DNA of 64,000 nucleotides. It comes from Rhina ancylostomus. Taxonomy: Eukaryota. A program made the translations under genes and the position numbers. Location of the stretch: positions 6,418,634 to 6,482,633 of the forward strand of contig JARFYF010000068.1 of the NCBI GenBank assembly GCA_030265395.1, in the 5' to 3' direction. The notes beneath the pieces were generated by a model. That model had not been told where the DNA came from, ran no database searches, and was given only the letters and a program-made list of their open reading frames with translations. Below, one piece after another: positions 1,196 through 62,189 of the stretch. The stretch's first letter is position 1. Every line of letters starts with the position of its first letter.

Positions 1196-1222
1196 CATAT
1201 TGGTCCCTAGCTACTCTCGCAT
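1196..1222 (-). CDS. Microexon 42 (27 nt): (H/D)ARVARDQY
   Basis: T-run then caaattctag|ATGCGAGAGTAGCTAGGGACCAATATG|gtgagc; implies the gene continues past the left edge. Confidence 0.75.
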
Positions 1223-1569
1223 CTAGAATTTGAAAAAAAAAGTATGCCGTCACCGCCTCGCCAATGGAAAGTCGGCAGAATAGGATGTAAATCAAAGCTA
1301 GCCATAGTGCCAAAATGCGTCCGGCAGTTTTACTTTGACAATCACGTCGAGGTTCATTAAATGTAACTTCGCAAGCTTGACTCAACTTGATCGGGCGCAT
1401 GGAATAGGGTGGAAACAGTAAGGGAAACAGGCCTGATTGGCTGCACTTCAGTTGCAATTAGGGTTGATGTGACCGAAGCACTGATATTAAAGTTGAAACT
1501 ACTAGATAGGTAAACAACGTAAATTATCCTTTTAAACCTGATGAAAAATGATTGAATGCAAGGACACAA

Positions 1570-1935
1570 CATCATACGAAAATGAAACAGGAAAAGGGCA
1601 TTCAGATCCAGAGCTTTTCTGGCATTGAAGATAATGCTTCATCACCTTTACTTTCCTTCACTCGTGCACATTCCTTCCTTCTCTCAACAGCTAAAAATCC
1701 AACTCAACTTTCAATATAATGGGCGACCCAGCCCCCACGCAGGGCCTGGGTAGAGAACTCCAAATCATTATTGACTGGGTGAAGAAATCTCTCCTCTTCT
1801 GTCCCGAATGCTACTTCGAGAGTACTCCCTAGTTCCAGACACGCCAGGGAAGACGTCGACTCTGCAGCTACCTGGTAAACCACTTAAGAGTTATGTATGT
1901 TTCAGTAAGATCATTTCTCAGTTCTTCTGAACTCC
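1570..1935 (-). mobile_element. Old CR1-type LINE 3' fragment, apparently resuming at about 2500-2580
   Basis: Degenerate motifs (GGTAGAGAACTCCAAA, GAAGAAATCTCTCCTC, TAAGATCA...TTCTTCTGAACTCCA); interrupted by a younger LINE. Confidence 0.55.
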
Positions 1936-1939
1936 ATAC

Positions 1940-2497
1940 AATAGGAATGCGGGAGGTAAGTTGCGGTTATATACAACGTTGGTGATGCTACACTTGCGTA
2001 CAACTTTGGTCGTCCTGTTACAGGAAAGGTGTTATTAAACTCGAACGAGTGTAGAAAAGATTTACCAGGATGTTGCCTGGAGTTGGGGTCTAAGTTTCAA
2101 GGATAGGTTGCGTAGAGTATATTCCCTAGAATGGAGGAGATTGAGGGATGACCTCATGGAGGTATAAAAGATAATGAGGGGCATAGCCAAGGTGAAATCA
2201 CATTGTCTTTTTCCCTTGGAGGGGTGCTAAAACAAAAGGGCATGTTTAATATCCGAGGTGAGAGGCTTAAAACGGACGTCAGGGGCAGCTTCTTCACGCA
2301 AAGGGTGGTGCGTATTTGGAGTGAGCTGCCAGAAATAGTGGTTGCGGCGGGCCATCTAGATAAGTATATGTATTGGAGATGCTGAGAGGGCCATAGGCCA
2401 AATGCGGGCAGATGGGACAAGCTTCCTGGACAACACAGTCGTCATGGACGAATTGGGTCGAAGGGCCTGTTTCCGTGCTGTTTGACTCTATGACTCT
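1940..2497 (+). mobile_element. CR1/HER1 LINE 3' portion with (GACTCTAT)n tail
   Basis: Encodes RGSFFTQRVVRIWSELPE...HLDKYM; ends GAAGGGCCTGTTTCCGTGCTG-TTTGACTCTATGACTCT. Confidence 0.88.
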
Positions 2498-3283
2498 AAT
2501 ACTGGCCCATGCTGCTCAAATTACCTCATTTGATAGACTCGTCATCTGTTGAACTTTCTCTGCACTCTCTCCATCACAAATATGGGAATGAAGACAACTA
2601 TAATGCACATACGGTATCATCAGTCTGCTGTTTAATTTGGCAGAAACGTTTACATTTTAGCTTTGCTTCATAATGGCATTCAAAATAAGGAGCCAATCTA
2701 GGTGAAGACCAATGTCAAACAGAGCTGCCTAATTGTCAAACATTCTCCCTGCAATTTTTCACCAAATCTTCAACAAGCTTCCTAAAACAATTCTAATTCA
2801 TCTGTGAAACATAATTTTCATTTCATATATTACGCTGAATCTGTACAATCCTGCTATTAATTTCTAAGTATGTGACCAGAACATTCTTAATGACAGATTA
2901 TACGACTTCCGCCGTTGTTAACATCAGAATAATCGGTCTGCCGTTTCTGCCTTTTATGTCTTAAAAGTTGGCGCTGCAATTGCTGCCTTTCAATCTGTGA
3001 ACTGTTCGAGAACACTTTACATTTTGCAAGATGGCCGCCAGAGATAAATTATCTCCATAGTCATCTATTTGAAACTCTTGGGATACTGCTTATCTGTTCT
3101 TCAGGATTTAGCGTCTCCCAGTCGCATTAATTTCTCCAGCGCTAGATTTTTATTGATGAGAATCATGTCAGTTTAATATAAAATATAATACACAATTAAA
3201 CGTAAATTAATGCACATGGTGAATATTTCGATGCCCGAGTCCAAGCGTTGATGCATTCAATTAATTACAGAATTATTTATTTT

Positions 3284-3327
3284 CTAATTTATAATTTGTC
3301 TGCCCTGAAGTTTCGGGGATCCCATCA
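3284..3327 (-). CDS. Candidate alternative terminal exon: LMGSPKLQGRQIIN*
   Basis: ccttgttcattgttttag|TG ATG GGA ... AAT TAG, in phase with exon 41; minus-strand AATAAA at 3276-3281 and 3149-3154. Confidence 0.35.
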
Positions 3328-3600
3328 CTAAAACAATGAACAAGGCTTCTTCGGCAACCGTTCCCTGCAGTGAGTCAGTACTCGTACACACGATTCACAC
3401 TGTCTTGACAACTTTGCTCTGTTATCCTTCAAAGCAAAATAATAATTTGAGAAGCGTTTCCTTGTTTTTCTTATTTGATAGGATCAGTACTTGTTGATTC
3501 CATATTTGCATCGTTCGGATGCACTTTGAATTGAAGGTTATTTTTAACTGAACTGTTGCCACTTGAAAGTTGAAAGGTACTAAAACACACTATTCCTTAC

Positions 3601-3606
3601 GCGTTG
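3601..3606 (-). CDS. Microexon 41 (6 nt): AT
   Basis: tgctttttatttgtttctcattcag|CAACGC|gtaagg; 89-nt intron to exon 40. Confidence 0.6.
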
Positions 3607-3695
3607 CTGAATGAGAAACAAATAAAAAGCAGTAACATGTTATGGTTTGTTGTCCCTGTCTTGAAAGATCAAAACAATTTAAGCACATATTTTAC

Positions 3696-3719
3696 CTTCA
3701 TCTGATCGTCGTGATACAA
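3696..3719 (-). CDS. Microexon 40 (24 nt): VVSRRSDE
   Basis: T-run then catttgaag|TTGTATCACGACGATCAGATGAAG|gtaaaa. Confidence 0.78.
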
Positions 3720-4094
3720 CTTCAAATGAAAAAAAAGGTAGAATAGCATCAAAATGATTATTCCATTTCGAAGCGTGGTCTTATTCAAGTTCTTAAGTAG
3801 GTTTGAATGAAACGCCAATATCCCAGAACTCCCCAGAAGCGCGGCGGGCTTTTCATGCAGAAGGCCCAGCACAAGATGAAGAGAAAGAAAGGAGACATAA
3901 ACGACTGCAGGTACTGGAATCTGACGTAAAAATTAAAAATGGCCGACGGAACACAGCAGGTCGAGAAGCATCTGTGCTGGGAGGGGGGAGGAAATGCTGC
4001 TTCGAATACATAGAATGCAATCTGTCTTATTCATCTACCATTCGCGGCATGGAACAAAGCTCCTCAAATATATTCAGGCCATTTGGTTACTTAC

Positions 4095-4121
4095 CACATT
4101 TCTCACGAAGCCTTTTAATTT
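4095..4121 (-). CDS. Microexon 39 (27 nt): EIKRLREKC
   Basis: cttttacaacctttctag|AAATTAAAAGGCTTCGTGAGAAATGTG|gtaagt; paralog of exon 15. Confidence 0.9.
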
Positions 4122-4917
4122 CTAGAAAGGTTGTAAAAGTTCAGTGTCGTGAGAAACAGTAAAACTCTGTTGTATTTTGTGATTAGGAAGTGCGTGGTGT
4201 CACCAGTAGCTGAACTGAACTAAGTCGACTCATATTCTTCAAAAGTGCAAAGGTGAAATATCCGAATCGCACCAATTGTACAAGTCCTGGTTTTCCATTA
4301 AGATAACGTTTGAAGAGGTTAAAGACAGGCCATGTATTCTGGCCGCTAAGGAAACGTGCCAAATAAACCAACGCTTTGGGGTGCTAAAATTATGGTGAGG
4401 TTCTCATCGCACATTTACACTTGACCACCAACAGAGATTGGAAAAACACTGTGAGCCAACAACTTATAATATTTTAAATAGATGCGGGACACTAAAGGAT
4501 GACTTTTCAAAACCACTGTATTGCTATCGGAAACGGGCGAATTTCGGTTGAGAAAAAGTTTTGCATTTTCGATGTTAATGGCAGTCTTAATTCACAGGGC
4601 AAATATGATGTATATAAAACACAGCTGGTGTGATTTTATCATTGAAACCTTCATATATGGATTTACGAAAACAAGTCTCAACTCATCCTTGAGCAGCGAG
4701 GTGCGGTATGTACGTCATCCTTCAGATATCTGCATGTCATTGAAAGCAGTATTGTGTATAGATTGTAGAATTTTGCATGGGTCAATAAGGAATATACGTT
4801 TTCTTAAACTAATCGCAGAGTAAAAAAGTGCATCTTCTTCCACATGTTCATAATTTGTGGCACTGACTCACATATATACTACAGAAGAATACCAGAATAT
4901 GTTTAAATATCTTTTAC

Positions 4918-4944
4918 CTTCATTCTTCAAACTAAGTAGTTCAG
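4918..4944 (-). CDS. Microexon 38 (27 nt): AELLSLKNE
   Basis: catgctttttttacacag|CTGAACTACTTAGTTTGAAGAATGAAG|gtaaaa. Confidence 0.9.
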
Positions 4945-5129
4945 CTGTGTAAAAAAAGCATGAATCAGAGCAGTATTAGGTCACTGGAATTAAGATTTGT
5001 TCGGTGATGTAGAGTGCTCGAACTACAAGTGTATAATTTGTTGAAGGTAAGCAACATTAATATAAAGCTGAAATTTGACATTCCTCTAACAGCTCAAACA
5101 TTTAGTAAACGTTTAAAGTGGATTTTTAC

Positions 5130-5165
5130 CAACATCTCTCTGAATGATTGTCAGTTTCTCAAGCT
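5130..5165 (-). CDS. Microexon 37 (36 nt): ELEKLTIIQRDV
   Basis: gaatttgtatcttgcag|AGCTTGAGAAACTGACAATCATTCAGAGAGATGTTG|gtaaaa; paralog of exons 13 and 17. Confidence 0.88.
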
Positions 5166-6561
5166 CTGCAAGATACAAATTCATATTGTCCTTCAAGTTG
5201 CGACCAATATCTGTCTGTTTGCCTTAGTAGCAATAATTAATGTACCCCAAAGACCTCTCAAAGAGGAATGCATTACTCCATCGTCACAGACAGTTCGCTG
5301 GAACTGCAGTTTGTAAATTGGGATTGCGCCGGAGTTCAGATGACCCGAGAGCTCTTACAAGCAAAAGTTAGCTTCTGTAATGGGCAAACAAGATGGGGAG
5401 AATTATGACTTTATGCTGAAGTGCCGCATGAATTTCCGATCTCCCCCCAGTGCATCACCATTGATTTGAACGGAGTTGCCCACACAAATTAATCTTTTTC
5501 TTTATTTCAAAGCATATTTAAGTGTGCAATAAATTAATCACTTCATTTCCCCTTAAATATACGTTGTCTCTTTCAAAAATATTTTGTTTTAGCAATTCAA
5601 TACTTCAACTGAAACTCATTTTCCCTACCAGCGACCTTCCAAGTAGTAAGAAAAGGTCTGTATCTACAATCACCTGCACGTGAGGAATCAAGACCCATAA
5701 TATTTGAGCTGATTTTATTTCCCTTCCTATTAGACGAATCAAGCAGGTGCAAATGAATTCAAAGCAAGAAAATTTAGAAGAAGACATCGAAGATCCATTG
5801 GCATGCTCCACTGACCTGCTGCCTCTGCAGCAAATGGGGAAAATTGGTCCAGTATCTGCTGTCTGGTTGATGATATTGTCTCAGTTAAGCGAAATAGCAA
5901 AATGCACGAAACAAATATGGGTAAAGCATCAAACGAGTTCAGTTGAAGCCTGTTAGCAGCAAGAATTAAACGGACAAAAAAGTTTATATCCTACGGAGAG
6001 CATTCTGGCTAAGAACTGGTGCTGCTGCGCGTACATCCAGTCACCTTCACGTCACAGGGAAGGTCTACAGAGTAAATGGATAACATGGTATTACATTGTC
6101 TAAAAAAGGAAACCTTGAAGTCATACAAAAATCAGATGTCCATCGTAGCAAGAAGGATGTATGTTCCATTTGATAAGNNNNNNNNNNNNNNNNNNNNNNN
6201 NNNNNNNNNNNNNNNNNNNNNNNNNNNNNNNNNNNNNNNNNNNNNNNNNNNNNNNNNNNNNNNNNNNNNNNNNNNNNTATGTTCCATTTGCTAAGCAAAT
6301 TTGAAAACAATTATGAATAATTTGATCGGTAAATGTTGGACAAAGTTGTTCTTCCATTTTTGTTCAATGAGAAACAAGAGGGAGAAATATGGTTTTGCAC
6401 TGATGGTTATGATTAACGAGTGCGCTCCTATAATAAAACCAGGTTAGAGATGACGATTGAAATATAATCCTGATGTGAATAATGGACAACAGCTGAACTC
6501 TCCAGGAGTTACTAGAAACTCACCTTGTCTCGGAAAGAGGAAATTCAGCCCGTCAGGTTCA

Positions 6562-6581
6562 CAGCGCCTCCTAGAGGGCGA
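6562..6581. promoter_or_regulatory. Candidate CTCF-binding site
   Basis: CAGCGCCTCCTAGAGGGCGA resembles the CTCF core GCGCCCCCTAGTGG in both orientations. Confidence 0.45.
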
Positions 6582-6928
6582 TCTCGTAATTTTAATTCAG
6601 CGATTCATCATTTGTCTTTGTTCTCGCAACCTACTCTCTCTCAGAGTTTCCCATCATATTCCCACTAATCCTTTTTGTTTAGAGTAGTAATTAAGGCGAA
6701 TGTTAGCCAATTATCTTAACATCGTAGGTCTCAAAGTGAAAGTGGTAACTCCGCATATATAGCATTTTAGGACAGGATCAAAGCAAGGCTCTTGGAATTG
6801 CGAGGTAGCAGCATTTACAACCGCACCTCTGTCGATCTGTATAAAGTAAGTGCATAATAAGACATGATGTGAGTATAAGATTAGAATTTGATTTTGGTAG
6901 AAGAGATAACAGGCATTATAAAAGTTAC

Positions 6929-6955
6929 CTGTCTTGGCTTCACGTATCAATGCTT
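6929..6955 (-). CDS. Microexon 36 (27 nt): EALIREAKT
   Basis: gtgttttttaattaatcatgcag|AAGCATTGATACGTGAAGCCAAGACAG|gtaact; paralog of exon 12. Confidence 0.88.
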
Positions 6956-7045
6956 CTGCATGATTAATTAAAAAACACAAAATCAATGTCAATTTTTAAA
7001 AATATACTGCATATATGCGCGTCTAGTTTAGAGGGTCCAGCACTT

Positions 7046-7095
7046 CATATATATACATATATATATATATAGATATATATGGATAGATAGATATA
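7046..7095. repeat. (TA)n/(GATA)n microsatellite
   Basis: Seen directly. Confidence 0.9.
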
Positions 7096-7749
7096 CAAGC
7101 ATATATTGATTTCGTTTTGCACTTTGAATCGAACTTTGTTTCCCAATTATTGTTCAGGTGTTCAGTCTGAGTTCACACTCGACATATTGGGTTTAATTAG
7201 TGCAGATAAGAATACTCTGAGTGAGATGGTTTTGGATTGTATCCAAAAGTCAATCAATATCCAATCATACAACAAAAATTGCACAAAGGGCAATAATTGA
7301 TGGTCAACAAATGAATAGCTACAATGCAGTTCTGATCATTATCAATTACAAATCCTTACTGTACTTCTCACAATCCTCTTACCGACTATATGGTGGACGT
7401 CTAGTTACTTTGGAAACAGAAATTTAATTGCGATCCTTTGGAAATGGGAATGTACTGGAGTACTTTTAGAAAGGAATTAGAAATAAAAGTAATTCCCAAC
7501 TAGAAATGTGAGGGTAATGGATGGATAAAACTATACGTTTAATTTATATGGTGTTCAAGAGATATGTCACCTAATTTCAAGCACCACAAGGAACTAATTA
7601 AATGGAGGAAATACTTATTTATTTGCATTGTTTATCAGATGATTTTCAAAGACACTTTTCACAAATTGGTGAAATTGCTTTGATTATATTTGTTTGCTCT
7701 GCATCAACGAATCGTAGCAATTAGTTGATTTTGATCTTTGTATTCTCTT

Positions 7750-9150
7750 TAGCAATGAGGGAGGTGCCAGAAGACAGCAGAATAGCAATGTTGTTCCTTT
7801 GTTAAAGACTGGCGACATGGGCTATCCATGAAATTATGGACGGTGAGCTTTACAGCAGTGATTGGGAATTTACTGGCGAAGACTCCTAGGGACAAGATTT
7901 GCTCGAATTTGGAAACGCATGTCTTTGTGTGGGGGAGGTCCTGTCTCAAAAATTGGACTGAGTTGTTTTGAAGAGATGACGAAGATGATTGACGAGGGTA
8001 GGCCAGGGGCTACTATACACATGGACTTTAGCATGGCATTTGACAAACCCCTCATGGTGGACTGGTCCAGAACATTGTCAGATGGAATTCACCGTCAGAC
8101 GGTAAGTTGGACACAAAATTAGTTTCGCCAAAGACAAAAGCTATTAGTGGTGGGCATATGTTTTTATGACTGAATTTCTGTGACCAATGGTGTTCCACAA
8201 GGATCTGGACTGCTCCTCTGCTGTTTGTAATATGAATACGAATAATTTGGACGACAATGTAGGTGGTCTGATGAGTAAGTTTGCAGACGATATGAAAATT
8301 GGTGGATTGCATAGTGTGGAAGATTTTCAAAGGATAGAGCAGGATACAGTTCAGTTGGAAATCTTGGTGAAGAAATGCAGAAGTTTAATCCGGAGAACGG
8401 TGCGATGGTTCATTTTGGGAGGTCAAATGCAAGAGGAAAGTGTACAGGAAATGGCAGAACCCTTAGGAGCATTGATTATACAGAGCCAGTTTGGGATACA
8501 GGACTTTAGCTCTCTGAATGTGGCAATAGAAGTGGATAGAGCGGTAAGGATTGCCTGCTGCACGCTTTCTGTCATCGGTCAGGCCATTCAGCATAAAAGT
8601 GGGCAGGCGCATTCAATGTAAAATTTGGCAAATCACATTGTAGCTGTCTAAAACTTTGGTCAGGCCACATTTAGAGTATTTATACAGTTCTTGTCGCACA
8701 CCAGAGGAAGAATGTGGAGAGAGGGCAGAGGATATTGCTTGGAGTGTGTTAGCTCGAAGGAGAGCTTGGACAAACTTGAATTGTTTTCTCTGCAGCGCTG
8801 AAGCGACTTGATAGAAGTATATAAAATTATCGAGGAAGGTGGATAGCAAGAGTCTTTTCCCCAGGGTGGAAATATCAAATACTAGAAAGCGAAGGTTTAA
8901 TGTGAGAAAGGGCAAGTTTAATGGAGATGTGGGAGGCAGGTTTTTACGGATGCAGTGGATGTGTCTGGGGCGCACAGCTGCAGATGAGGTGCTGGAAGCA
9001 GACATGGTAGCATTTTGACAGACATATGAACAGGCAGAGAGTTGACGGATACAGACCACGTGCAGACATGGGATTATTTAGACTGGCATCATTGTCGGCG
9101 CGGGCACAGTGGGCCGAATAGCCTGTTCTTCTGTTGTACTCTTCCATGTT
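7750..9150 (+). mobile_element. 5'-truncated, frameshifted CR1 LINE (RT domain to 3' UTR)
   Basis: Fragments FEEMTKMIDEGR...MDFSMAFDK and SKFADDMKIGG are CR1 reverse-transcriptase motifs; 3' end GGGCCGAATAGCCTGTT. Confidence 0.9.
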
Positions 9151-10389
9151 ATGATATCACTCCAAATTTCCAGCTTTTCAATATGAACAGGATATAATAT
9201 TTTTATTAATGGGACAATGCATTGACGTCTGGCTGCATAGCATTATAGAAATTTCCAGACCAACATTTCAAGACAAGTTATAACGCAGAATGCCTTTCGA
9301 ACGTTCCTGATGGCATCATGTGTAAAATTCTTCGATCTAGTTAGATCCTTAACCAAAATGTTTCTGGTGCTATATCCTTTACCCAGAATAAATACTGAAC
9401 ACAAAATGTTTGGAATACATATGGAAACCTTCTGAACACATCGTGTTCTAGTTGTGTTATTAATTTATTGCCCACTCATTACACATTGCCAACCTGCTAC
9501 TCGGTATTATAGCGCCATTATTTGGATCTATACAATTTGCAACATACTATCACATTAAGCATGAGCAATACAATATAGGACTTTCCGAATAAATTCGATG
9601 TATCATATGCATCGGAAAATATTTTACATTACCGGCGCTTCCTGAAAGACATTTTAACTGATTCAGCACGTCACGAAAAATCAATGAAATTATAGCTGGG
9701 GCTGTCATTCATTCCATTGATTTATTCCACAGGCCATACGCTAAATTCACTGGTCGGAATTGCTGGTTCCTTTCTTATTTCACCTGGACGGAGTGTTTGG
9801 CTCCGTAATTTTAAGCTTGATTAGACCCAGAAATTGATATACATGTCAGATAGATACTCGAGTTTGTTTATGGAAGAACCATTTTAGACTAGATGTAGAG
9901 GTCACGATGATAGTTTCTTGATTGTTATTGAAAATAGTAGTTTTATTATTCCAGGTCGCTTTACAGTTACTTGAATATGCATTCTCACAACGCCCTGGTG
10001 GTATTTAAACAATAAGTAAGGGATCTGGAACACACATTGACAATTTCGTTTCCAGATCGCCAATTTTTAATACTAGAAGAATCAATAAAATAAACATACA
10101 AATAAGGTAACTTTGAAGTAAGAGCTGACTTGGATGGGACCTCATTATACAAAAGAGAGGTGTGATAAAATGAAATATCCTGGTCCGAAATCAAATGATA
10201 AGCTTTTTTATATTTATTTCCAAGCATGTTATATTACTTAAAGTTAAAAAAAATCTGTACTTTGATCTAATGTCCCTGCTTACTCACCGTCATCTTTTGT
10301 ATGCGAGTCAAGTTCTACAAATCATGATTAATAAAGCAATATTAATACTATTAAACTCTTGCCACCATTGCTCCGAATGTTTCTCTACA

Positions 10390-10691
10390 TAGGTTTTCTA
10401 TGTTTCTATACATTGGTTTAAGGTGCTGGGGAGTAAATATTGGGAGAAGAGGAGATGTCAGGGGTACATCTTTTACTCAGAGAGTGGTGAGTGTGTGGAA
10501 TGGGCTGCCGGAAACGGTGGTGGAGGCGGATACGATAAGGTCGTTCAAGAGACTGTTAGATTGGTACATGGAGCTGAATGAAATAGAGCGTTATGTGTAA
10601 GCCTAGTAATTTCTAGGTTAGGGACATGTTCGGCACAGATTTGTGGGCCGGAGGGCCTGAATTGAGCTGTAGGTTTTCTATGTTTCTATGT
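10390..10691 (+). mobile_element. HER1-type LINE 3' end flanked by a perfect 20-bp direct repeat
   Basis: Encodes FTQRVVSVWNGLPE...FKRLLDWYM; TAGGTTTTCTATGTTTCTAT at 10390-10409 and 10670-10689. Confidence 0.88.
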
Positions 10692-10770
10692 AATTAGCTA
10701 AACGCGGAAATGTACGTTGTACTAAGATAACAGCAGAGAAAAACGAAGCCGTTATCATGAATGACATTAC

Positions 10771-10797
10771 CCTTCTCCTTCTGCTTCAGCTTTCGCT
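10771..10797 (-). CDS. Microexon 35 (27 nt): ERKLKQKEK
   Basis: attgtttttgcttaccag|AGCGAAAGCTGAAGCAGAAGGAGAAGG|gtaatg. Confidence 0.88.
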
Positions 10798-12183
10798 CTG
10801 GTAAGCAAAAACAATTGCAGTATTGTGATTATTTTACCAATGATGAAATTATTATTTGTGTTAGAAACAAGTCGCTGAATTCTACACCAACGTCTGTTTC
10901 CCTGCGTTGATCTTGTATTAACTGGGCTATCTAGATCCGAAATACTTTCTATATGTACTGCGTGTTCCAATACATGCCACTTCCACTGAAGACAGACATG
11001 AAGTGCTGGATGTTTAAATCGCGTTATTATCCCTTGGTAGTAACTTTTTCAACAAAAAAATATGAAAACAAACGAAATGAGGGCAGTCTTTGTAAAGGAG
11101 GACAGGTCTCTGGTCCTTCCACTTGCATGAAAGGATGGAACCTTTTCGGAGATCCGCTCAGAATACTTAATTTGATTTATTTTTCTAATATCCGGCGAGT
11201 AATGTTTAAAGTACGATTCATGAGGATGAACTTCAGCACTCCTATTTCAGTTCATTACTTGCGAGATAACAAAAACATATCCGTCGCCTATTTTTAATAT
11301 CATGGCTTGGGATTTTTCTCACCGCTCTTTGTATTGAGATGCTACGAATAAAATGATTCTTGTCAGTTTGGATATATACATATTTTTAAAGGCGGTATGT
11401 TTGTATTTTGAAATGATGTCTGTACTGTTGATGCAGAGAGCTTGAGGGGGATATGGAGTTGCTTATCAATTGCAAACTGAGTGGAATCGTATGTCTGGGG
11501 ATAGAGCAACGTCCAATATTAAACATCATTAAAGGGAACGTAAAGGAATAAAATACCGAAATTTTAAGAGCTGATTGACATAGTAACGTTTTAAAGTTAC
11601 GCTGCATGAGCAAAAGTTCAGCAGTCCATCTTTGAATGGACCATATTTGCTTTGGTCGGTTAAAGTATGTTGTCTGATGTAATATAGTGGAAATATTATG
11701 CCTTTGCCCGCATACATTGTTTGCCTTAATGACTGTTAGAATATCATTGGCAATTGGCCATTTAATCTACCTGGAGCAGAGACAAAATAAAACAGACTGG
11801 AAGGATTCTAACGAAAGCGCAATTTTTCACGTTGATGGATGACAGTGAATATATTGTAAGGATCTGCACAAATTTTATTAGCAGCAATTGTGTCGCACAA
11901 TGAATATGTGTTAAAGCATATTGCTGTTATATATGCTGATCTGTGCTTTGGCAGGATATCAACTACTTTCATTGAATTTTACTTTCCCTAAGGTTTGTGC
12001 AACTTATTGTACAATTTTTGACACATTTTAATAAGAAAGGATTACATTAACTTTTCAGCATAAGAACATGCCATGAAACAAATTACACGCATTCTTTAGC
12101 ATTTCTTGAGCCTAACATTCTAGTTGTGCACCAATGTGTGCACCACATTGCACCAGAGAGTTTTTGCTCATCTCTTTCCTTAC

Positions 12184-12219
12184 CACATTCCTGGAGTTGG
12201 CTTGTTAGGTTTTCTACCT
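12184..12219 (-). CDS. Microexon 34 (36 nt): EVENLTSQLQEC
   Basis: gctgatttctgtttgcag|AGGTAGAAAACCTAACAAGCCAACTCCAGGAATGTG|gtaagg. Confidence 0.9.
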
Positions 12220-14480: not shown

Positions 14481-14655
14481 CTGTGTAGAAAATTAAAAAA
14501 AGCAGGAAATTGCTGCTTCCGATCTAATATGTTTGTTTGAAGTCTACACAACGAGCAGCAAATCAGATGCAAACGCCTCCATTATTCGTCATAACTGCGT
14601 ATTCGTCATAGTCTAACATTTCTGTTTAATTCCATAAGTTCTTTGTATTACTCAC

Positions 14656-14667
14656 CACAGCTGGCAT
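14656..14667 (-). CDS. Microexon 33 (12 nt): DASC
   Basis: ctgttgtattttgttcatcag|ATGCCAGCTGTG|gtgagt. Confidence 0.82.
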
Positions 14668-49479: not shown

Positions 49480-49815
49480 TTCAAAATTCTGACAGTGCTG
49501 CAATGACTGTATGTGGGGAGGATATTTTCCTTGGCATCATGTCTCCAGTTATTGGGTAAGAGAGTTAGTATTGAAATGAGGAAAGGTTGTTTCAATAAGA
49601 AGATGATGATCCTTTGGAATTCGCTACCACAATGTGAAGTAGGGGCCAAGCTCACTGAACACATCGAAGAAGAAGATCGATACATTTCTGGATACATAAT
49701 GCCTCAAAGGCATGGGGAACGTGCTGGTAAATGGTACTGAGTTAGGTGATCAGCCATGATCATACTGGATGCCAGGACAACCAGGTACGGTCGAATGACA
49801 TGTTTCTGTTTCTAT
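49480..49815 (+). mobile_element. Degenerate CR1 3' end
   Basis: Encodes EMRKGCFNKKMMILWNSLPQ; GATCAGCCATGATC 3' UTR motif; TTTCTATG tail. Confidence 0.7.
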
Positions 49816-52469: not shown

Positions 52470-52745
52470 ACAGTGAGGGGTGAGAAGTGTATCACTGTGT
52501 TACAGTGAGGGGTGCGGGTGTAACAGGGTTTACACTAGGAATACGGCCTACATCACAGTGTTAAGGTGAGGGACGTGGCATGTATCGAGTGTTACAGTGA
52601 GGGGTGTTGGGTGTATCACTGCTACAGTGTGATGAGGCGTTTATCAAAGTGTTCGACTGAGTGGTGCGGTCTGTATCAGAGCTCTATATTGAGGGCTGTT
52701 TGGTGTATCAAAGCGTGGTCTTGGGGGATGCGGGGTATATCAGAC
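52470..52745 (+). repeat. Degenerate minisatellite, about 32-bp unit, about 8-9 copies
   Basis: Recurring ACAGTGAGGGGTG...GTGTATCA...GTGTT units. Confidence 0.7.
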
Positions 52746-53223
52746 TTGAATCGTTCTGTTATCCTTAAACATTTTGGTATTTATTAGAGACAATATGGAA
52801 AAATGATGACACTATAACTACTCTCTGAAATTGCCTGACAACTTAAGGGAAATTTAACAGGCACACTGAATGCTGACGGAGCCGGCGATGCTTGCATCTC
52901 ATGAAGCACAAATAAGAAAATAAATATTGCTGGCTTGAATTGCATTGCATAACAGCAAGAATCTATGACCGGCAATATTCTATTGATGTGGATTGTGGTG
53001 ATTTGGGCATTTGGTGATGTAAAAAGATTTCATATCCGCCCAACCACCAACAACCTTCCGTTTCAGCGTTTCTGCTGTATTCAAAGCAGCTGAAATAGGA
53101 ATCGATTTTTTTTGTAAATTGCCAATCAAGCTGAATGCACCTGTTTCTTTTTTTCCTGATCTCAAAGTGATGTTAATGCGATCATCAATAAAATGCATTA
53201 GAATTTGAATAAATTGGTTTTAC

Positions 53224-53250
53224 CTTGTTCCTTGGATCGCATGGCCTCCT
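53224..53250 (-). CDS. Microexon 7 (27 nt): EEAMRSKEQ
   Basis: ttttccgtgttgaactttcctgcag|AGGAGGCCATGCGATCCAAGGAACAAG|gtaaaa. Confidence 0.88.
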
Positions 53251-53699
53251 CTGCAGGAAAGTTCAACACGGAAAACAATTAAGTGTTGCAATTTGTGTTC
53301 ATAAAACTCTACCCACAACTAAATGGGTCTTTCAGGCCACGGGATCTTGAACATTAACCCTTGAAATTTAGATTATGTCATGACGACTACTAGTTGGATA
53401 TAAACCTGCAAACAAATTTACCTTGAAATGTACATATTTAGGCGATATTATCTACTTATATTTGTCATTTTGTGGTACATGTTTTATAACACTGAACAAG
53501 AACGACACGCGACATTTCATTAAGAAGACATTCACACTTTGGGAATTTGTATTCGGCTATCAGTAAAATGTTATTTTGTCGTTCGTCGCACTGGCTCTAT
53601 CAATCTACATAAAAGTATACGATTTTTGAACTGACTGTCAAAGTCAAAGCGATTACTATAATTTATCTCGCTTTAACTATGTCTCAATATCAAATAAAC

Positions 53700-53985
53700 G
53701 GAAAAAGACGATGAGCGAAGTACAGAGGGACCCTGGTATTCTTTTTCATAAATCGCAAAGAAAATTATCAGGCAGGTACAGTAAGTTGCTGGGAAGACAA
53801 CGTTGTTTTCGTTGAAAGAAGATTGAAGTTTAGAATTAGGGAAACATTCTTAATGTACTGATCAGGACGGTCCTGAAGTACTGTGCACAGTTATAGTGCC
53901 CTTATTTAAGAAAGGATATATTGGTATTCGAAGCAGTCCAAAAGCGATTCACCATGCTATTTCCTGGATAAGAGGGTTTTAATAC
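53700..53985 (+). mobile_element. Internal CR1 ORF2 fragment
   Basis: GTACAGAGGGACCCTGG...GTACTGTGCACAGTT...AGAAAGGATAT...GATTCACCA. Confidence 0.7.
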
Positions 53986-54692
53986 GAAAACCTTCGGCAT
54001 AATGTAGAACAAATCAACCTGCTTGATTGACTCTCACTCCGGCACAACATGCATTTATTCCTTTCAGCACTTTTGACTTGTGTGTGCACATGCGCGCTAT
54101 CGGTTAAATAGAATCTGTTCTACTGTGACAAGAGCACTCAAAACAGTGACCTCCAGTATTATGAAGGACACCGGACACAGGTGCGTAATATATGACGCGC
54201 AAGTCTCCGCCCAAGTTAAAATACAATCCCGTCTTTACAAAAACATTACTGCTTCCTGATTTCCCTTAGCTCTAGATGCTGAAACTCTCTATCAAACTAC
54301 ATTATGGGGTTGTTTTCATCATAAGGACAGCAGAAAATAACGCAAGATGATCAAGGGCAGTTGCTGATAGACACTTCATGATAATCATTATAATGAACCT
54401 GTAACCAATGAAATAATAAAATAATACTGATTGTCCTAGAGAAGAAGCTAGATAGGATACGTTTTCCAAAGTATTCATCCAATGAGGGAGACGTTAAATT
54501 TGCCTATCGATATTGATGTTTCCCCGAGTCTTTACTGTGCAACAAGTAACTTGCCTCAACTTAGCAATGGTGCTAACGAGGTGCATACGTTTCTTTCTGA
54601 GTGTCTGTTTTGAAGCTGGGAGATAAAGTGAACAATAACAACAACCTACCAGATTTGTCCCAAAGGCAACTCAAAATAAACGAAAGACTTAC

Positions 54693-54728
54693 CAGACTCT
54701 TGCACCTTCGTCGTCAGCTTCCCTATTT
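54693..54728 (-). CDS. Microexon 6 (36 nt): EIGKLTTKVQES
   Basis: gaatgatttgttacag|AAATAGGGAAGCTGACGACGAAGGTGCAAGAGTCTG|gtaagt. Confidence 0.88.
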
Positions 54729-56383
54729 CTGTAACAAATCATTCATATAAGGATTGAATGAAGCTTTGTACGGGCATAATGTGGCATCTCTTTTCACAAT
54801 TAGTGAGCAAAAAGTAATGTATTCGATATAAGTGCATCCTTTTGGTAGCAGAAAACGGAATATTCTCCGTATAATTCCAATAACCAAGATTTCCTGGTGA
54901 TTTTCAAAACAGTTGTACATTGGTAATGCTGAATTGTTAGTCCTATGAAATAAATTTTATTCTGATGGCTTTCTATGAGTATATTTTAAGCTGGAGTGCC
55001 GCTACGTTAGGATTTTGCCATGCACGTTGCAGTCGTTCATGAAATATCCACCGTTTTCCGCAGAAATCAGTTATTTCCTATTTATCGACAGCCAACTTCT
55101 CAAGATCGTTTATGGCTTTAACATCTTATAAGAGTTGATATTCGACTAGTAGAATTATCATTTTTCAATTTATTGTTTATGAGTTGCAAAGGAAGATGAG
55201 AAAATTGGTTGAAACTTGTCATAGACTGCTCATGCCACACATCTAACCTTGTACAGATGCCAACTGTTTAATTGTCGAAGAATTGTCTGACTGCTTGCAG
55301 TTAGTTGAACATGGGATCAAAGTAAAGGTAGATATGGCAAGAAACCAGGCTCATTGACCCACCGAGTTCGCGCCGACTACCTATCTTCACACCTATAGTA
55401 CCTTAACCAATTTTGTTTTCCGTACATTCCAATTAACTCCCCTCATAATTCAGCTACTAACCAGTGAGGACAAATTATAGCGGCTTATAAACTCACTAAC
55501 ACGCACATTTCTGGGATAATATTGCAAAGCAGAGCACCCGGAGGAAACTCACACAATCACAGGAGAATGTGCGAAGTCCAACTGATTATGGAGAAGAACA
55601 GGATTGAACCCGAGTTGGGGAAGCTGTCCATCAGCTGTCCCTCCGCGCCACCCATATTCTATGGCGCATTCTTTCCACTAGGGCGGTGTATTCTTATGTT
55701 TTTGTGAAGAATATGAAATTAAAAGGTGGTAAAATAAAATACAAAAGGTTTTAATCTTCACCACTAGTTGTTGGCATGTATCAAATCAAAACATGCCGAC
55801 GGTTTATTAATGTAGTTTTTATATTCCGGATTTATGGGGCTGTATTATTCCATTAGAAATTATCATTGTATCGCCAACTAGAAAATCGGAGTACCCAGGG
55901 GAAGTGGATAACTGTCACACAGATAACATGCAATTTCTGCAGCACCGGACGCCTGGATTGAACACGGGTCACTGGAGCTGTGAGAGATCAATACTACAAG
56001 CTGCGCCACTTTGACGGCCCAGTGATTTCATGGCATCACTAGCATAGTTGCCTCGCTCAATACCTTTACATAAATCATGGTTGGTATTTACCAAGGTGAA
56101 CATGCGGATTTAAAAGAGTGGGTATGCGCACGCGTCTCTTTGTATTGCTGGTTTCTCGACTTCGAATCAATTTTGCTGCTGAATTTATTTGCCACATAGT
56201 TACCAGTAAATAACAGTTGCAAGCCGTTCTTGATATGTGATTGTATTTGTGGTAACAGCACGGCGCGAAGAAATAACGCAGTGATCATTATTAGGTAAAA
56301 ATCGAAACAAACATTTGGATTGATATTTCGAGTACAACGCATGAAAGGCTGAAAGGGTGTAGATAGACAGATATTATGCTTAC

Positions 56384-56410
56384 CGATATCTTTTACAAGT
56401 AGTTGCCTCA
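56384..56410 (-). CDS. Microexon 5 (27 nt): MRQLLVKDI
   Basis: cgttattcttttgcag|TGAGGCAACTACTTGTAAAAGATATCG|gtaagc. Confidence 0.88.
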
Positions 56411-57005
56411 CTGCAAAAGAATAACGCAACAGACTTAAAAGAATAACACACGATACTACCGTGTAATCTGTATTACTAATATTACACAAATCTCACGTTC
56501 AAACACACATTCACAGTTCGCACTGCCACAAAACACAATATGCAAACCAGCACACATATCGCGATCAGTAGTTAAAGGGTATATTTAAAGTTACTTTCAT
56601 TGAAACAATTTGCATTCTGCAAATTTCGTTTTTGGATGTCGGCTCCTTTAATTATAATTTCCATTCGTAGTTCCAGAACATGGTTTACTCTTCTCAGAGT
56701 TATTGCAAAAAATAGCACGCACGCTGTCATATGTTTCCTCCCATTAATATCAACCCAACTGCTGCCTCAAAATTTCCAGGTAACCTCGGAAAATATTTCC
56801 ATTCTCTCGCCCTCGAAGAATGAATCCGGATTTCGTGAACTCGCAAAAAGGGCCTGTCTTTTGCTTTGGAATTATGTCTGATGACGATGTCCCCTGCCGC
56901 CCATACTCTCCCACGTCACCAACGCAAGCAATCAAAGAAAAATCCAATATAAACAAAGCCATTCTTTGATAAATGTTTGCATTTGCAGTTATATTTTTCA
57001 CTCAC

Positions 57006-57032
57006 TGCTCGCCTGAAGAAGCTTCTTGCATT
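57006..57032 (-). CDS. Microexon 4 (27 nt): ECKKLLQAS
   Basis: attatatactcattag|AATGCAAGAAGCTTCTTCAGGCGAGCA|gtgagt. Confidence 0.8.
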
Positions 57033-60000
57033 CTAATGAGTATATAATTCAAATAAGTAAATAAATGATTTGACAGCACTGAACATTTGGGCAAAGCATC
57101 TTAATGAATTCAAACAACCAGACCATCATACTTCAACCTAAAATTTTAGTGGAGTTTCTTCAAAACGAAAGGTGATGTGACATTATTGTAATTAAACCCG
57201 TGTTATAGTGAAATTGGAATTGAATAAGTTGTTGATGAGATCCATGTTTTTATCATTGCAATTGTTAATAGTTTTTTTTAAATACAGTATATCACTGTTA
57301 ACCTGGATGCTAGGCATAATTAAGTATTGCTGAAGTAATGAACTCAAATCTTGACAAGTTAACATCAATACAAATGGCTTCCGCGCTGTACTAATAACTA
57401 TACCCTTCAGTGAAATGCTGTTATTGTTATTAGCTTATTTTGGCTGACCTGTGCTCTGGATAAAATAACGTGGTTCATCCTTAATTTCCACTTGAGGTAA
57501 ACAGTTACCAATGACCAATAAATCCTGACCAGACCAATGATGCCCAAACTTTGTAATTGCTTGAATATCGGAATTTCGGAGGATTGCTTATGTTTGTGCG
57601 CATTCTCGTCGGAATCCAATGCGTATCATACGATAAAATTGCTATCAGTTTAGGATCTAAAATAAAACTACGTCCATTCCGAAAATACAAAATTATAAAT
57701 GGTTCCTGGTCCAAGAAATCTTAACCTTAATTCCTGGAAAGAATAGAGATAGAGCGGCAGAATAAACTCAAATGGTCAATAAAAAGAGGACCGGAGATTT
57801 CATAACTTGTTTACAACTTTGAAAGAAGGTGAATATTATTGACAGAAAACAACTGGATCAGTCCAATTCATTACAATTAAACACTTTAAAACCTGACAAA
57901 AGTATCATTGTTCGGAATTGCAAATCATGAACACTCTCATATGATTTTATATCAGCTCTTTGCTTTGCTTTCTCGATAGCACCATCTCTATTTTTCCAAC
58001 TTGTCTTATTGCCGTTTATGTGTTTCGTGAAGTAGATAAAAGAGATAGTAGATAGTAGCTGAAAGAGGCTTCATCTGTGTCTATCCTCTTCAACAGGGGT
58101 ATGGTTGACATTTACCTGAACTTCAGGTTTCTTTTGTGCCAGCTGAGAACCATTACCCCAGACTAATTCTCAATTGCAAATCTTCACACATCATCTTTAA
58201 CCAATTACACGCGCTGATTAATCCTCCCACCACCAGTGCCTTACTAAATTTCACCCTGCCAGTGAAATAGGAAAAACACAACCTTACTAAAAGCCATGAC
58301 TACTAAAAGCGAGAAATATTAACAACTTGCTTCTAAAATTTTAATCAGTTGCATCCAAACTACAATTCTTGGTATTGATATCTCTGTCATACCTGTATTG
58401 CACTAACTGTCAGGGCTATACATCATTTTATGCAAGACATCTCGGTTTTTCTCAGTCGCTTTTATTCCATGCATAATGGCCCAACACTAGCAATCTTTTA
58501 TTTAATCCTTATTTGGCAACATTATTGGAAATCTCCTCAGTATCTTTTTTTATTGGAATCATATCCTTCCTGAACAGTGGTTAACGGAACAGGACAATGT
58601 TCTCCGGTTGTAGTTTACCTTGTGTAATATGGAATTTTAGTATAACCATCATGCTCCCATAGGCGATACCTGAGCGAATAACGAAAATGTTTCGCCCAAC
58701 TTTTTAAAATAATATAATGCATTGTTCTGCTATTTTCCGTGTTCGGTAGCATATATTCTCATATTTGATTGCATGTTCGATATTTTCTTGCATGCTTCCT
58801 CCGAAGAAATAGATAAATACACTTATTTATTTATAATGAAAGACATTACCATTGAATGCTTCGTCTTGGTCGCCTGTATTTTCAACGAAATTTAATCAGG
58901 TCAGAGTTGATGAAATTGACAAGAGAATTCAAGGAATTTCATATACGCCAATGCCTCTCAGAAGTTGAACATTAACTTTCCACTTCAGGAGCAATCACTG
59001 AACACAATAATTCAATAGGTTTGCAACTTTATTTGTGGATGTTTTGTATTGTGCACATTTTAAGACGATAAAAAATCACATTTCGCAAAGCTACACCTCG
59101 TCTGCCAATGTGAATCATTGTACTTCTAATGTCTGTATTTCAACGGATTGTTTCACCTGTTCTTAATGTGGAATATGAAGCATGAGTGAGAATATGAGTC
59201 TATGTGTGATGCCACTGGTACTGGCAACCATTTCATATCACGCGGATCAGAGTATCAGTGGCAGAGAGGGCAATGGGAAAAGAAATCGTGACACCGGAAG
59301 ATTTGGAATAGCAATTGAAAAGCTGGCAAATATTTCACCTCCCCTCCCAAGAACCGTATGAAGACATGGGTGTGCACATGCACATAAACATATCCATGGT
59401 AAACCGCCACAGCTGAATTCACCCTTGCCCCATCTGTCCCAGCCCCCTTCACCCTTATCGCAGTGACCCTGCTACCCTCATTCCCCTGCTCATTCTTTAA
59501 ACGGTTTCCTACTCAGACTCCTTCTTCCCTTCTCACATCCGCCTTACTTCAACTATCCCCTTCTCCCTCTGCCTGTGCCTTCTACCTCTTCCTTCTCGCT
59601 CACCCGTTCGCAACTCAACGATTTGATTTTAACATGCAGGATTCAACTTTTAACGATAAATCGTGAGCCTGAATCACGGCTTGCAGTTCAAATTAAACCT
59701 AATCGAAGCGAATAAGAATCAAGAAGAATATCTTACAGATTTGGCTGGTGAACAGAGTGGCGATATGATTATTACAAGCTGATAACATGTCTGTCGGACA
59801 TTATTGCAGGCATTCTTCTAATCAGTGTCTTAGTAAAAAGAGTTGCATCCAATAATGTTCATTATTGTAGGTGGGCACATTGTGATATTAGTTACATGTT
59901 CCATTGCGCACTATTGATACACAAACGCAAGTGTATTGAGGCAGTCTGACCCATGGCAATTATTCAGAATGTTGAATATTTAATGTTCTCGTTATCAACC

Positions 60001-60660
60001 TGAAACATATGCTTTGTTTTCCTCTTTACAGAAGCAGCCCGATACCTGTGCTTCCAAAATTCTAGTTTAATATCTGATATTTTAAAGTATTGTACATGGC
60101 AGTATTATTGAAACATGGCAGTTAACAGTTAATCACTTCCCTGAAATAATGAAAGCATTTTAATGTAAAGGCTTTGAGCATTTTATCCAGATATCAGCTC
60201 GTTATTTAATGAAGAACATGTATGCCCTTTGGTATAATTGTGCAGGTTCATTGGATTGGCCATCGATTAGAGTTTGTTTTAACTAGCAATCTAACTGGTT
60301 CAATCCGACAGTGGAAATTATGAAAATTTTTCCTATTGGATGGCGAAGTTTTGATTTACGGTACACTCTTCTGGAATCCTTTGCGCCTCTGGAGGAGATT
60401 TTTTTCTATGAAACGATGTAATAAAAATAGTCCAAAGAACCTAACAGCAGGGCACTGCCCTTCATATATTTCTTACGGTAAGAACTAATGTTTGTAACAA
60501 CGTCCCAATTTAATTTTCTGCGCAATCCCACAGGTGCATACAATAATACGGGAGTCAGCCCCTGCAGGTAAACATATTGATCTTTGGTAACATGATATGC
60601 CCGTGTGCTAGTGGTACCAAGGTTTCCAAGACGTTTGTATCAAAGTCATTAGAACTGTAC

Positions 60661-60678
60661 CTGTCGATTTCGAATCCG
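60661..60678 (-). CDS. Microexon 3 (18 nt): ADSKST
   Basis: ttttctcttttgtttaatcatag|CGGATTCGAAATCGACAG|gtacag; resembles the DSKENCAT exon. Confidence 0.75.
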
Positions 60679-61052
60679 CTATGATTAAACAAAAGAGAAA
60701 AAAATTATAATCATGTACGTTGGGAAAAAATGTAACATATATTATTGATAAGTATAATTTCTTTAAGTTTTTTATTGTCGACAAGTATTTCCTTCTTGCC
60801 TTTGGCAGAAGGGAAACTGTTGTGTAAACTATATTGTATGTAGTTTGGAAACACCTAAAACGAATCTTTTCATCAACCATTCCCCATGGTAGTGTTTGCT
60901 TTTAAGACGCCGATGGAACTTGGAGACGCCTATCCTCATGGACCTTTCAAATTCCTGATCAAAAACAAAACATCTGGAATCTGGTGTCTAAATTGGGAAA
61001 ACCGATCCACAGATCAGTCAAGCAACAGAATCATATCTTCCAGTCATCATGC

Positions 61053-61325
61053 AGGCACGGTAATGTAGCGGTTAGCGTAACGCTATTACTGTGTCAGCGA
61101 CCCGGGTTCAATTCCGGAGTAAACTGTAAAACGTTTGTACCTTCTCCCCGTATCTGCGTGGGTTTCTTCCGGGTGATCTGGTTTCGTTGCACATTCCAAA
61201 GACGTACGGATTAGGAAATAGTGGCACAGAAAGCGTGGCGGGCTGCCCCCAGAATACTCTACGAAAAGATGCATTTCACTGCGTGTTTCGATGTACATGT
61301 GACTAATAAAGAGATCTTATATATC
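61053..61325 (+). mobile_element. tRNA-derived V-SINE (HE1-like)
   Basis: A-box-like TAATGTAGCGG, B-box GGTTCAATTCC, V-domain GTGGGTTTCTTCCGGGTG...CATTCCAAAGACGTACGG, 3' AATAAA tail. Confidence 0.85.
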
Positions 61326-61459
61326 TGGTGTAACATATCTGGTTTACCAATCAGGAACAATCTTATACAGAGAGTACAGCTGATGAAGAAGTTGCGCATT
61401 CAAGAAGTGAAAACGCTTGCTGTAAAAAGGAGGCAGTTCCTTTCTAAAACAAATCTCAC

Positions 61460-61495
61460 CACTTTCTTTAATCTTTGACTGCAGTGTGATAATTT
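61460..61495 (-). CDS. Microexon 2 (36 nt): EIITLQSKIKES
   Basis: ctacttctccttctag|AAATTATCACACTGCAGTCAAAGATTAAAGAAAGTG|gtgaga. Confidence 0.88.
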
Positions 61496-62162
61496 CTAGA
61501 AGGAGAAGTAGTTTCCAACAATGGGTGTTAGCGTATATTAGTTATCTTTAAGGAGCTTATTTTTAAATATCCATGAAAAAGTACCCCACCACCATCTGAA
61601 TGTACGAAACTAGCAAAGCACATTAAAACATTCGGCCATACAAAATCCAAAGTTCTGCATTGAACACTTGAAATGTCTTCCAAATCATTGACAATTGTGA
61701 AGAAAATAATTCGTGGAAGAGCATTTTCAAAAACAAAATGGGTACGTCAAGGAGAAAATGCAAGTCAAGCCTTGATTGTGTTATTTTGAATTCAAAGCAG
61801 TCATTCCTTCAGTGATGCTTGTTATGTAATTGCAATGATTTACTTATTATCAGTATTAAACAGGGATAAAATATATAAAGTTACATTAATTTCACTGTCA
61901 TGTTACAAAGTTACTATGTTAGCCCAACACAGAAACAACAAAATAAACCTTCAAAATATATTTAAGGCCTTAATATCTCTGGAATGGAATCATAATGGCA
62001 GGTTTCTGAGTTTCCGAAGGACAAATGGAGACAAATTATTAATCTACTAAATGCAACTTTATAATGCTTTCTGAAGATTACTATCAATCACCTGGATGAA
62101 TCTTTCCCTTTTCAGTATATAATATGTTACTATTAAAATAGTTATAATGCTGGACTATTTAC

Positions 62163-62189
62163 CTGCATTTTTTAACAAGATCTGTCGCA
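62163..62189 (-). CDS. Microexon 1 (27 nt, phase 1-1): xRQILLKNA
   Basis: ttatttgactttcag|TGCGACAGATCTTGTTAAAAAATGCAG|gtaaat; paralogous to exon 56384-56410. Confidence 0.85.

Follow-up and report, generated by a model that had tools for sequence, protein, structure and literature searches.

The window analysed here, a stretch of 64,000 nucleotides (nt) from the 2.2-Gb genome of Rhina ancylostomus (C68:6,418,634-6,482,633), lies entirely within an array of very small minus-strand exons that occupies at least 514 kb of a contig which also carries genes of the major histocompatibility complex (MHC). The evidence supports a protein-coding array that encodes a heptad coiled coil and reaches past both ends of the window, and we infer from the sequence that the exons are spliced to one another. 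On balance, the array is probably a real elasmobranch MHC gene or short gene train, sharing its design, and probably its origin, with the heptad-exon tail of butyrophilins and BG proteins, and expanded by exon-block duplication into a long segmented coiled-coil rod. Positions marked "rel" carry the window numbering past both ends (genome position = 6,418,633 + rel).

Both strands of the window were scanned for AG..GT candidates with an untrained splice-site score (the generic score), in comparison with 100 block-wise dinucleotide shuffles. At 27 nt this returned 21 candidates on the minus strand and 3 on the plus strand, against a mean of 1.14 (maximum 5) in the shuffles; at 36 nt the corresponding figures were 7, 2 and 1.25 (maximum 5), while the remaining lengths from 20 to 44 nt averaged 1.35 candidates on the minus strand. 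The 28 minus-strand candidates of 27 or 36 nt were open in phase 1 in 25 cases, against 14 in phase 0 and 13 in phase 2. A second score was trained on the array's own phase-1 exons, and phase tests made with it are therefore not fully independent. It gave 42 window exons from 62189 down to 1196 (25 of 27 nt, 11 of 36 nt, and two each of 24, 12 and 9 nt; 1,161 nt in total), the best 40 of which join without a stop into 379 residues rich in E (17%), K (14%), L (14%) and R (9%). The initial annotation, made from the letters of the window, had proposed the same number of minus-strand exons with the same limits, all opening in phase 1, with a single GC donor (seen here at 31551) and a stop-free Glu/Lys/Arg/Leu-rich product of heptad character, coding for less than 2% of the span. 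Our scans reproduce each of these features; the coding share is 1.5% when computed over the larger 122-exon set described below. Its length tally of 24 exons of 27 nt and 10 of 36 nt (1,155 nt) was correct to within one or two exons. Its exons as short as 6 nt fared less well, as the 6-nt candidates at 61595, 42288, 30610 and 3606 score weakly. Two look-alike 6-nt AG..GT sites in similar flanks (42283-42288 and 30605-30610), with a third on the plus strand at 10481, are probably a repeat element and not exons.

Beyond the window, a contiguous stretch of 324 kb (rel -100,000 to 224,000) scanned with the trained score contained 140 minus-strand candidates (74 of 27 nt, 34 of 36, 12 of 24 and 2 of 21 nt among them) and 14 on the plus strand. 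All 140 fall between rel 222,862 and -46,142, with none 3' of the array end. A 27-nt motif pattern designed from array exons and searched genome-wide gave 22 matches, all on the minus strand and all in two clusters, at C68 6.377-6.886 Mb (n=13) and at 36.33-36.60 Mb of a second contig, C53 (n=9); the reversed control gave 11 matches. With a looser 27-nt pattern, 25 of 29 matches lay inside these clusters, and a 36-nt pattern added C68 6,712,451, 6,798,307 and 6,886,894 among 118 mostly scattered matches, 100 of them listed. The array thus continues past the window by 46 kb on the 3' side and by at least 404 kb on the 5' side, and the window covers about one eighth of it. The background of about 14 candidates per 324 kb implies that some of the 6-21-nt calls are false, and it is what could be said for regarding the whole array as chance splice-like sites or a repeat element. 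The initial annotation had argued that chance sites should not converge on two lengths and one phase, and the plus-strand and shuffle densities agree: with 21 candidates against at most 5 in any of 100 shuffles, and with the restriction to one strand, one phase and two loci, such an origin is refuted for the 24-, 27- and 36-nt exons and vanishingly improbable for the array.

The exons also carry marks of coding constraint. Selection on splice sites alone (trained score) left 94 candidates of 27 or 36 nt; phase 1 was open in 92 of them, and the other two phases in 40 and 45. The 122 exons that lie at rel 188,164 and 3' of it form a stop-free frame of 1,127 residues once joined, and 80 of the 121 junction codons encode Glu; this joined product is the basis of the period, junction and transition figures given here. 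Paralogous exons with their splice sites match at up to 94%. Their 80-nt intron flanks could be aligned in not one of 3,129 exon pairs of equal length; the duplications are therefore old, with only the exons kept. In 26 disjoint exon pairs, picked by nucleotide identity, pN/pS was 0.56 and differences by codon position were 76/58/94 (p=0.014), a pattern that shows purifying selection. One exon class was found 8 times; higher-order repeat structure otherwise rests on inspection. Three exon-like sites in the window break the frame, at 48793 and 50721 (good splice signals) and at 19686 (weaker), and could be dead exons or poison exons; a few such sites are expected where exons are born and die. 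Together with the failure of our searches to find a database protein, they are what speaks for a decaying relic (pseudogene) in R. ancylostomus. We consider this very unlikely, since phase 1 is open in 92 of 94 strong candidates, exons are retained amid unalignable introns, pN/pS is below 1, and gene models occupy the syntenic place in catshark (see below).

Two recent single-exon tandem duplications, whose flanks are still alike, were seen in the array (C68:6,667,742 with 6,668,745, and 6,670,192 with 6,672,062), which indicates that growth of the array continues. Towards its 3' end (rel -651 to -30,382), a younger block repeat contains near-identical 27- and 36-nt exons and 24-nt acidic linker exons bearing proline or glycine; one 36-nt copy has shrunk to 33 nt.

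Hydrophobic residues in the 122-exon product recur with a period of 3.5, at a power of 24.1; the highest value in 30 shuffles was 11.6. They occupy codons 1, 4 and 8 of the 36-nt exons in 76, 91 and 82% of cases and codon 3 of the 27-nt exons in 66%. Lys stands at codon 6 in 40 of the 74 exons of 27 nt. With three core positions per 36-nt exon and one per 27-nt exon, a 27+36 pair amounts to 21 residues, or three heptads in register, and 45 of the 121 exon transitions are 36-27 or 27-36. The product is acidic (net -40) and nearly free of proline, with N-glycosylation sequons showing no excess (3, against 3.1 expected). Judged by its sequence, the predicted product is a segmented coiled coil. 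Searches of a protein database that includes elasmobranch RefSeq proteins gave no match for a 40-residue frame containing the ATG described below. An aligned query of ten 40-residue open frames, each with one 36-nt exon, gave none among 7,908 candidates at E<=10, and against 1.84 billion representatives it returned two unrelated tandem-repeat proteins; these queries are mostly intron-derived and weak, such that absence means little.

A second array of 27- and 36-nt exons lies on C53, where it spans at least 380 kb up to 36,607,000; in the 5.5 kb read, seven phase-1 exons alternate between the two lengths. A SPRY exon (36,203,769-36,204,080, with an assembly gap inside it) lies on the same strand as this array, 24 kb past the last microexon that was mapped. 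It is divergent and single-copy (next genome match about 40%), and its nearest solved relatives are the B30.2 domains of BTN3 and TRIM21 (E 2e-6 and 6e-6). Its position and strand suggest that it is spliced to the C53 array. No PRY or SPRY match maps to C68 6.3-7.1 Mb (122/122 PRY and 150/152 SPRY candidates scored), and genome-wide Ig searches likewise place none there among the candidates scored (V-set, 150/846; C2-set_3, 55/55; C2-set_2, 150/160). No B-box was found near either array's 5' end (150/191 candidates scored; RING was not searched). A Pfam scan of 149 of 158 minus-strand frames of at least 92 residues, which left out nine frames from the farthest 3' locus and 116 plus-strand frames, gave only mobile-element-type matches and one weak DUF, with no Ig; nor was a signal peptide seen in the DNA read.

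With no head domain found, the product might instead be a secreted or extracellular structural fibre protein, as in skin, egg case, sperm or a gel matrix, that would be the vertebrate equivalent of the schistosome micro-exon genes (MEGs) and unrelated to butyrophilins. Its wholly modular symmetrical exons resemble those described in the available part of the MEG account (PMC4350168), and absence from two of three elasmobranch annotations could mean narrow tissue expression. We regard this as unlikely, because the sequons show no excess, no signal peptide was seen, and the C53 paralog ends beside a B30.2, a domain that is cytoplasmic in butyrophilins.

The array lies in the MHC. On C68, MHC class I genes lie at 9.75-12.8 Mb and butyrophilin-like genes at 0.67-1.7 Mb and 12.3 Mb; the region from 0.59 to 3.3 Mb is dense in butyrophilin-like IgV/IgC and TRIM-like B-box/B30.2 exons, matching sawfish chr34. 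Some 10.5 kb separate the end of the array from the first exon of nurim, which is on the same strand (the first nurim exon was placed by inspection, the last by sequence match). The adjoining nurim exon is 94% identical to that of sawfish, 86% to that of a skate and 83% to catshark nurim. On the 5' flank, RRM matches at C68 6,939,509 (minus) and 6,958,368 (plus), followed by a PRY match (7.108 Mb) and PBX (7.19-7.22 Mb), give the RBM4B-like pair, TRIM, PBX2 order of sawfish chr34. The gene lists available in PMC10751288 (Verissimo et al. 2023) show no gene in sawfish from the NRM start at 7,515,761 to 8,477,394 (0.96 Mb), and none in white shark from 92,345,785 to 94,175,162 (1.83 Mb). For catshark, the same lists show seven unnamed models on NRM's strand at 22.22-26.155 Mb (3.9 Mb), each of 177 kb to 1.18 Mb and the last ending 9.7 kb before NRM (LOC119975530, LOC119975529, LOC119976764, LOC119975528, LOC119976528, LOC119976526 and LOC119976524). 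Like the array, these models lie directly upstream of NRM on its strand; they are known here by coordinates, and their orthology is by position. Position thus suggests that the sawfish, white shark and catshark intervals hold the same array, and the catshark models probably capture parts of it. We found no paper naming six of the seven model ids, and the main text of PMC10751288, as available, gave no match for NRM, butyrophilin, coiled, desert or uncharacterized. Its catshark sheet is titled chr37, yet the symbol c13h6orf136 on NC_052158.1 points to chromosome 13. In reedfish, tRNA genes and dhx16 lie upstream of nrm, and there is no comparable interval. Three candidate identities were rejected: the CCHCR1 locus, as the gene lists place cchcr1 at 3.7 Mb from NRM in sawfish and nowhere near it in the two sharks; MDC1, by its separate annotation; and triadin, as the array has leucine-rich heptads and an MHC position.

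At the 3' end, the last exon (rel -46,142) reaches a stop after seven residues, and an ATTAAA lies 251 nt further on; a strong donor is present after 6 nt of this exon as well. The 10 kb between this point and nurim, which include three nominal 100-base gaps, hold no frame longer than 141 residues and no Pfam match, and the C68 copy seems to end, next to nurim, in a short basic tail with no B30.2. Towards the 5' side, a candidate stop-bearing exon lies about 140 kb from the window at rel 203,685 (L025:9685). It is followed 3' by a long interspersed nuclear element (LINE) piece, a 9.6-kb gap and then an exon of 48 or 120 nt opening with ATG at rel 188,164; a hydrophobic candidate of 126 nt immediately 5' of that exon failed the splice threshold. 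The interval from rel 203,685 to rel 188,164 is a possible boundary between two tandem genes. Further 5', about 15 exons were found in the 30 kb of C68 6.667-6.697 Mb. At the density seen, the array is estimated to contain 270-290 exons encoding about 2,500-2,700 residues, an extrapolation in which C68 6.70-6.89 Mb is represented by five pattern matches. A search of sequencing runs with the candidate 3' untranslated region turned up no RNA. The one run listed behaves as DNA contigs and covers introns; it is probably the assembly's own source and not independent support.

These boundary features allow a different partition of the array, namely a tandem cluster of shorter membrane-anchored BG-like or TSBP1-like genes with their heads (signal, Ig or just a transmembrane exon) in gaps or unread DNA, in which case the window would belong to the cytoplasmic tail of the last gene, a tail of about 1,100-1,200 residues. 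The stop-bearing exon, the gap and the ATG exon are consistent with this, as are the division of the catshark interval into seven models in the accessible lists (PMC10751288) and the tandem, same-strand arrangement of BG genes in the available part of PMC8813856. However, neither the Pfam scan (149 of 158 frames) nor the Ig searches, among the candidates scored, placed an Ig domain there. Nor is there a genomic paralog of the ATG exon, contrary to repeated heads, and a donor that could be used (score 5.5) is present on the stop-bearing exon too. We hold such a cluster to be a possibility of limited weight. The initial annotation had proposed a single gene with its start, and probably its end, outside the window; the ends do lie outside, and the stop-bearing exon, the 9.6-kb gap and the seven catshark models qualify the word "single", as the array may be one gene or several. 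Equally tentatively, the whole nurim-to-RBM4 interval may be one transcription unit of 270-290 microexons and 2,500-2,700 residues, a splice-tunable MHC-encoded rod kept through the whole of shark and ray history. Were this so, and the 3.9-Mb catshark train the same gene at half this density, it would have about a thousand exons, well above the 363 of titin. No known vertebrate gene would then have more exons, and ordinary annotation would not see it.

Under the interpretation we favour, a gene or short gene train of the butyrophilin/BG type, the reading frame survives the duplication, loss or skipping of any of the symmetrical 3n exons, which begin and end in phase 1. Each 27+36 pair adds three heptads in register, and runs of 27-nt exons insert stutters. 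The exons would be spliced into one or a few long mRNAs, and the chains would most likely zip into parallel dimers, giving a rod some hundreds of nanometres long (2,500 residues x 0.15 nm = ~375 nm). By analogy with BG tails, this rod may serve inside the cell as a spacer or as a scaffold tied to the cytoskeleton, and splicing and the birth and death of exons would adjust its length. The array probably descended from a butyrophilin-type heptad tail, and its two copies would represent two family forms, as butyrophilin versus BG, with a B30.2 on C53 and without one on C68.

Several observations weigh against this interpretation. The closest 6 exon pairs gave a pN/pS of 0.36 that was not significant (p=0.25). 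The commonest transition is 27 to 27 (29/121), and the rod is therefore not one clean heptad run. Array exons of 9 and 12 residues, in register only as pairs, differ from the BG exons of 7 (sometimes 8), and skipping of a single exon would shift the heptad register, unlike that of one-heptad BG exons. No IgV match was found near either array's 5' end outside the 9.6-kb gap and C68 6.887-6.93 Mb, nor any IgC match near either array outside the remaining gaps, among the candidates scored. No convincing transmembrane exon was seen in the DNA read (2 minus-strand candidates against 3 on the plus strand). The butyrophilin link therefore rests on exon design, MHC position and the B30.2 of the C53 paralog; the splicing of that exon to the array is deduced from position and strand, B30.2 is shared with TRIMs and so not butyrophilin-specific, and the cellular role suggested for the rod is drawn by analogy.

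The exons and exon-like sites of the window are collected in Table 1. The introns contain a perfect 26-nt tandem duplication (19063-19113) and mobile-element fragments (8184-8621 and 42427-43486 in the window; L025:7236-7583; L027:3187-3543). One intronic fragment is a Tf2-type SH3 match of a long terminal repeat element (Pfam scan), and the LINE pieces we take to be CR1/L2-like, of shark type.

Table 1. Predicted exons and exon-like sites in the window, in order along the minus strand.
Feature	Position	Strand	Basis
27-nt phase-1 microexon	62163..62189	-	splice scan
36-nt phase-1 microexon	61460..61495	-	splice scan
27-nt microexon	56384..56410	-	splice scan
36-nt microexon	54693..54728	-	splice scan
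27-nt microexon	53224..53250	-	splice scan
26-nt exon-like site, strong splice signals, frame-breaking; probable decayed or skipped exon	50696..50721	-	
27-nt exon-like site, strong splice signals, in-frame stop; probable decayed exon; DNA contig identical	48767..48793	-	
27-nt microexon	46817..46843	-	splice scan
36-nt microexon	46495..46530	-	splice scan
27-nt microexon	45000..45026	-	splice scan
27-nt microexon	42017..42043	-	splice scan
27-nt microexon	41347..41373	-	splice scan
36-nt microexon	40509..40544	-	splice scan
27-nt microexon	38796..38822	-	splice scan
27-nt microexon	37313..37339	-	splice scan
24-nt microexon	35218..35241	-	splice scan
36-nt microexon	33587..33622	-	splice scan
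27-nt microexon	33397..33423	-	splice scan
27-nt microexon	32260..32286	-	splice scan
27-nt microexon, GC donor	31551..31577	-	splice scan
36-nt microexon	29988..30023	-	splice scan
27-nt microexon	26951..26977	-	splice scan
27-nt microexon	26808..26834	-	splice scan
27-nt microexon	23259..23285	-	splice scan
36-nt microexon	22685..22720	-	splice scan
27-nt microexon	20667..20693	-	splice scan
12-nt candidate, lower confidence (weak acceptor)	20296..20307	-	trained scan
36-nt microexon	19751..19786	-	splice scan
Exon-like site, weaker, stop or missing base	19660-19686	-	splice scan
27-nt microexon	17740..17766	-	splice scan
36-nt microexon	17111..17146	-	splice scan
27-nt microexon	14797..14823	-	splice scan
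12-nt microexon	14656..14667	-	splice scan
27-nt microexon, weak acceptor	13221..13247	-	splice scan
36-nt microexon	12184..12219	-	splice scan
27-nt microexon	10771..10797	-	splice scan
27-nt microexon	10288..10314	-	splice scan
9-nt candidate, lower confidence	9633..9641	-	trained scan
27-nt microexon	6929..6955	-	splice scan
9-nt microexon	5816..5824	-	splice scan
36-nt microexon	5130..5165	-	splice scan
27-nt microexon	4918..4944	-	splice scan
27-nt microexon	4095..4121	-	splice scan
24-nt microexon	3696..3719	-	splice scan
27-nt microexon	1196..1222	-	splice scan
Whole window, inside array	1..64000	-	array = C68:6,372,465 to at least 6,886,921

The elasmobranch MHC serves as a model of the ancestral MHC, and the published lists leave a hole of 1-2 Mb beside nurim in sawfish and white shark, which is probably the region's largest gene or gene train. 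Cartilaginous fish would thereby gain a BG-like/butyrophilin-like pair, with and without B30.2, which bears on the origin of heptad-exon tails, and vertebrates a gene class missed by frame-based annotation and short-word RNA mapping alike. Our literature search, which did not extend to subscription papers and bioRxiv supplements, found no description of such an array; what is new here is the copy in the MHC, how large it is, and that it corresponds to the interval left empty in two published MHC maps.

Among known systems, Schistosoma MEGs resemble the C68 array in that their coding regions consist mostly of very small symmetrical exons in long introns, according to the available part of PMC4350168. 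As described there, MEGs are short secreted proteins with high dN/dS, restricted to flatworms, whereas the array predicts a giant rod with pN/pS below 1; no homology is claimed. The B-box that precedes the coiled coil in TRIM proteins was found with neither array among the candidates scored. TSBP1 (C6orf10), an MHC gene near NOTCH4 and BTNL2, also has many small exons, of 21 nt, together with a transmembrane segment; "tsbp1" had no match in the available elasmobranch gene lists of PMC10751288. Chicken BG (B-G) is alike in layout: in the available parts of PMC4046983 and PMC8813856, it is MHC-linked, lacks B30.2, undergoes exon birth and death, and has a long cytoplasmic coiled coil in many tiny symmetrical exons. 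The array likewise has many small in-frame exons with a period of 3.5, lies in the MHC and lacks B30.2 there. According to the same sources, the BG heptad region is built of exons of 21 (sometimes 24) nt, one heptad each (PMC4046983), and a coiled-coil protein derived from a BG tail affects actin-myosin, with tail variation under selection (PMC8813856). The array differs in exon length, in its extent of at least 514 kb with an estimated 270-290 exons, and in that signal, IgV and transmembrane exons, present in BG, were not found in the C68 array DNA read. Because the exon lengths disagree, and no Ig or membrane head was found, we do not assign the C68 array to the BG genes or the butyrophilins. 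Butyrophilins (BTN/BTNL) have only a few heptads behind an IgV-IgC-transmembrane head, and ordinary BTN-like genes sit elsewhere on C68; the IgV-IgC ectodomain was found with neither array among the candidates scored, and the C68 copy lacks the C-terminal B30.2, which the C53 paralog has by position. Butyrophilins are MHC-linked in cartilaginous fish too, as stated in the available part of PMC12841164, and they carry heptad exons followed by a B30.2, the arrangement that the C53 paralog appears to share.

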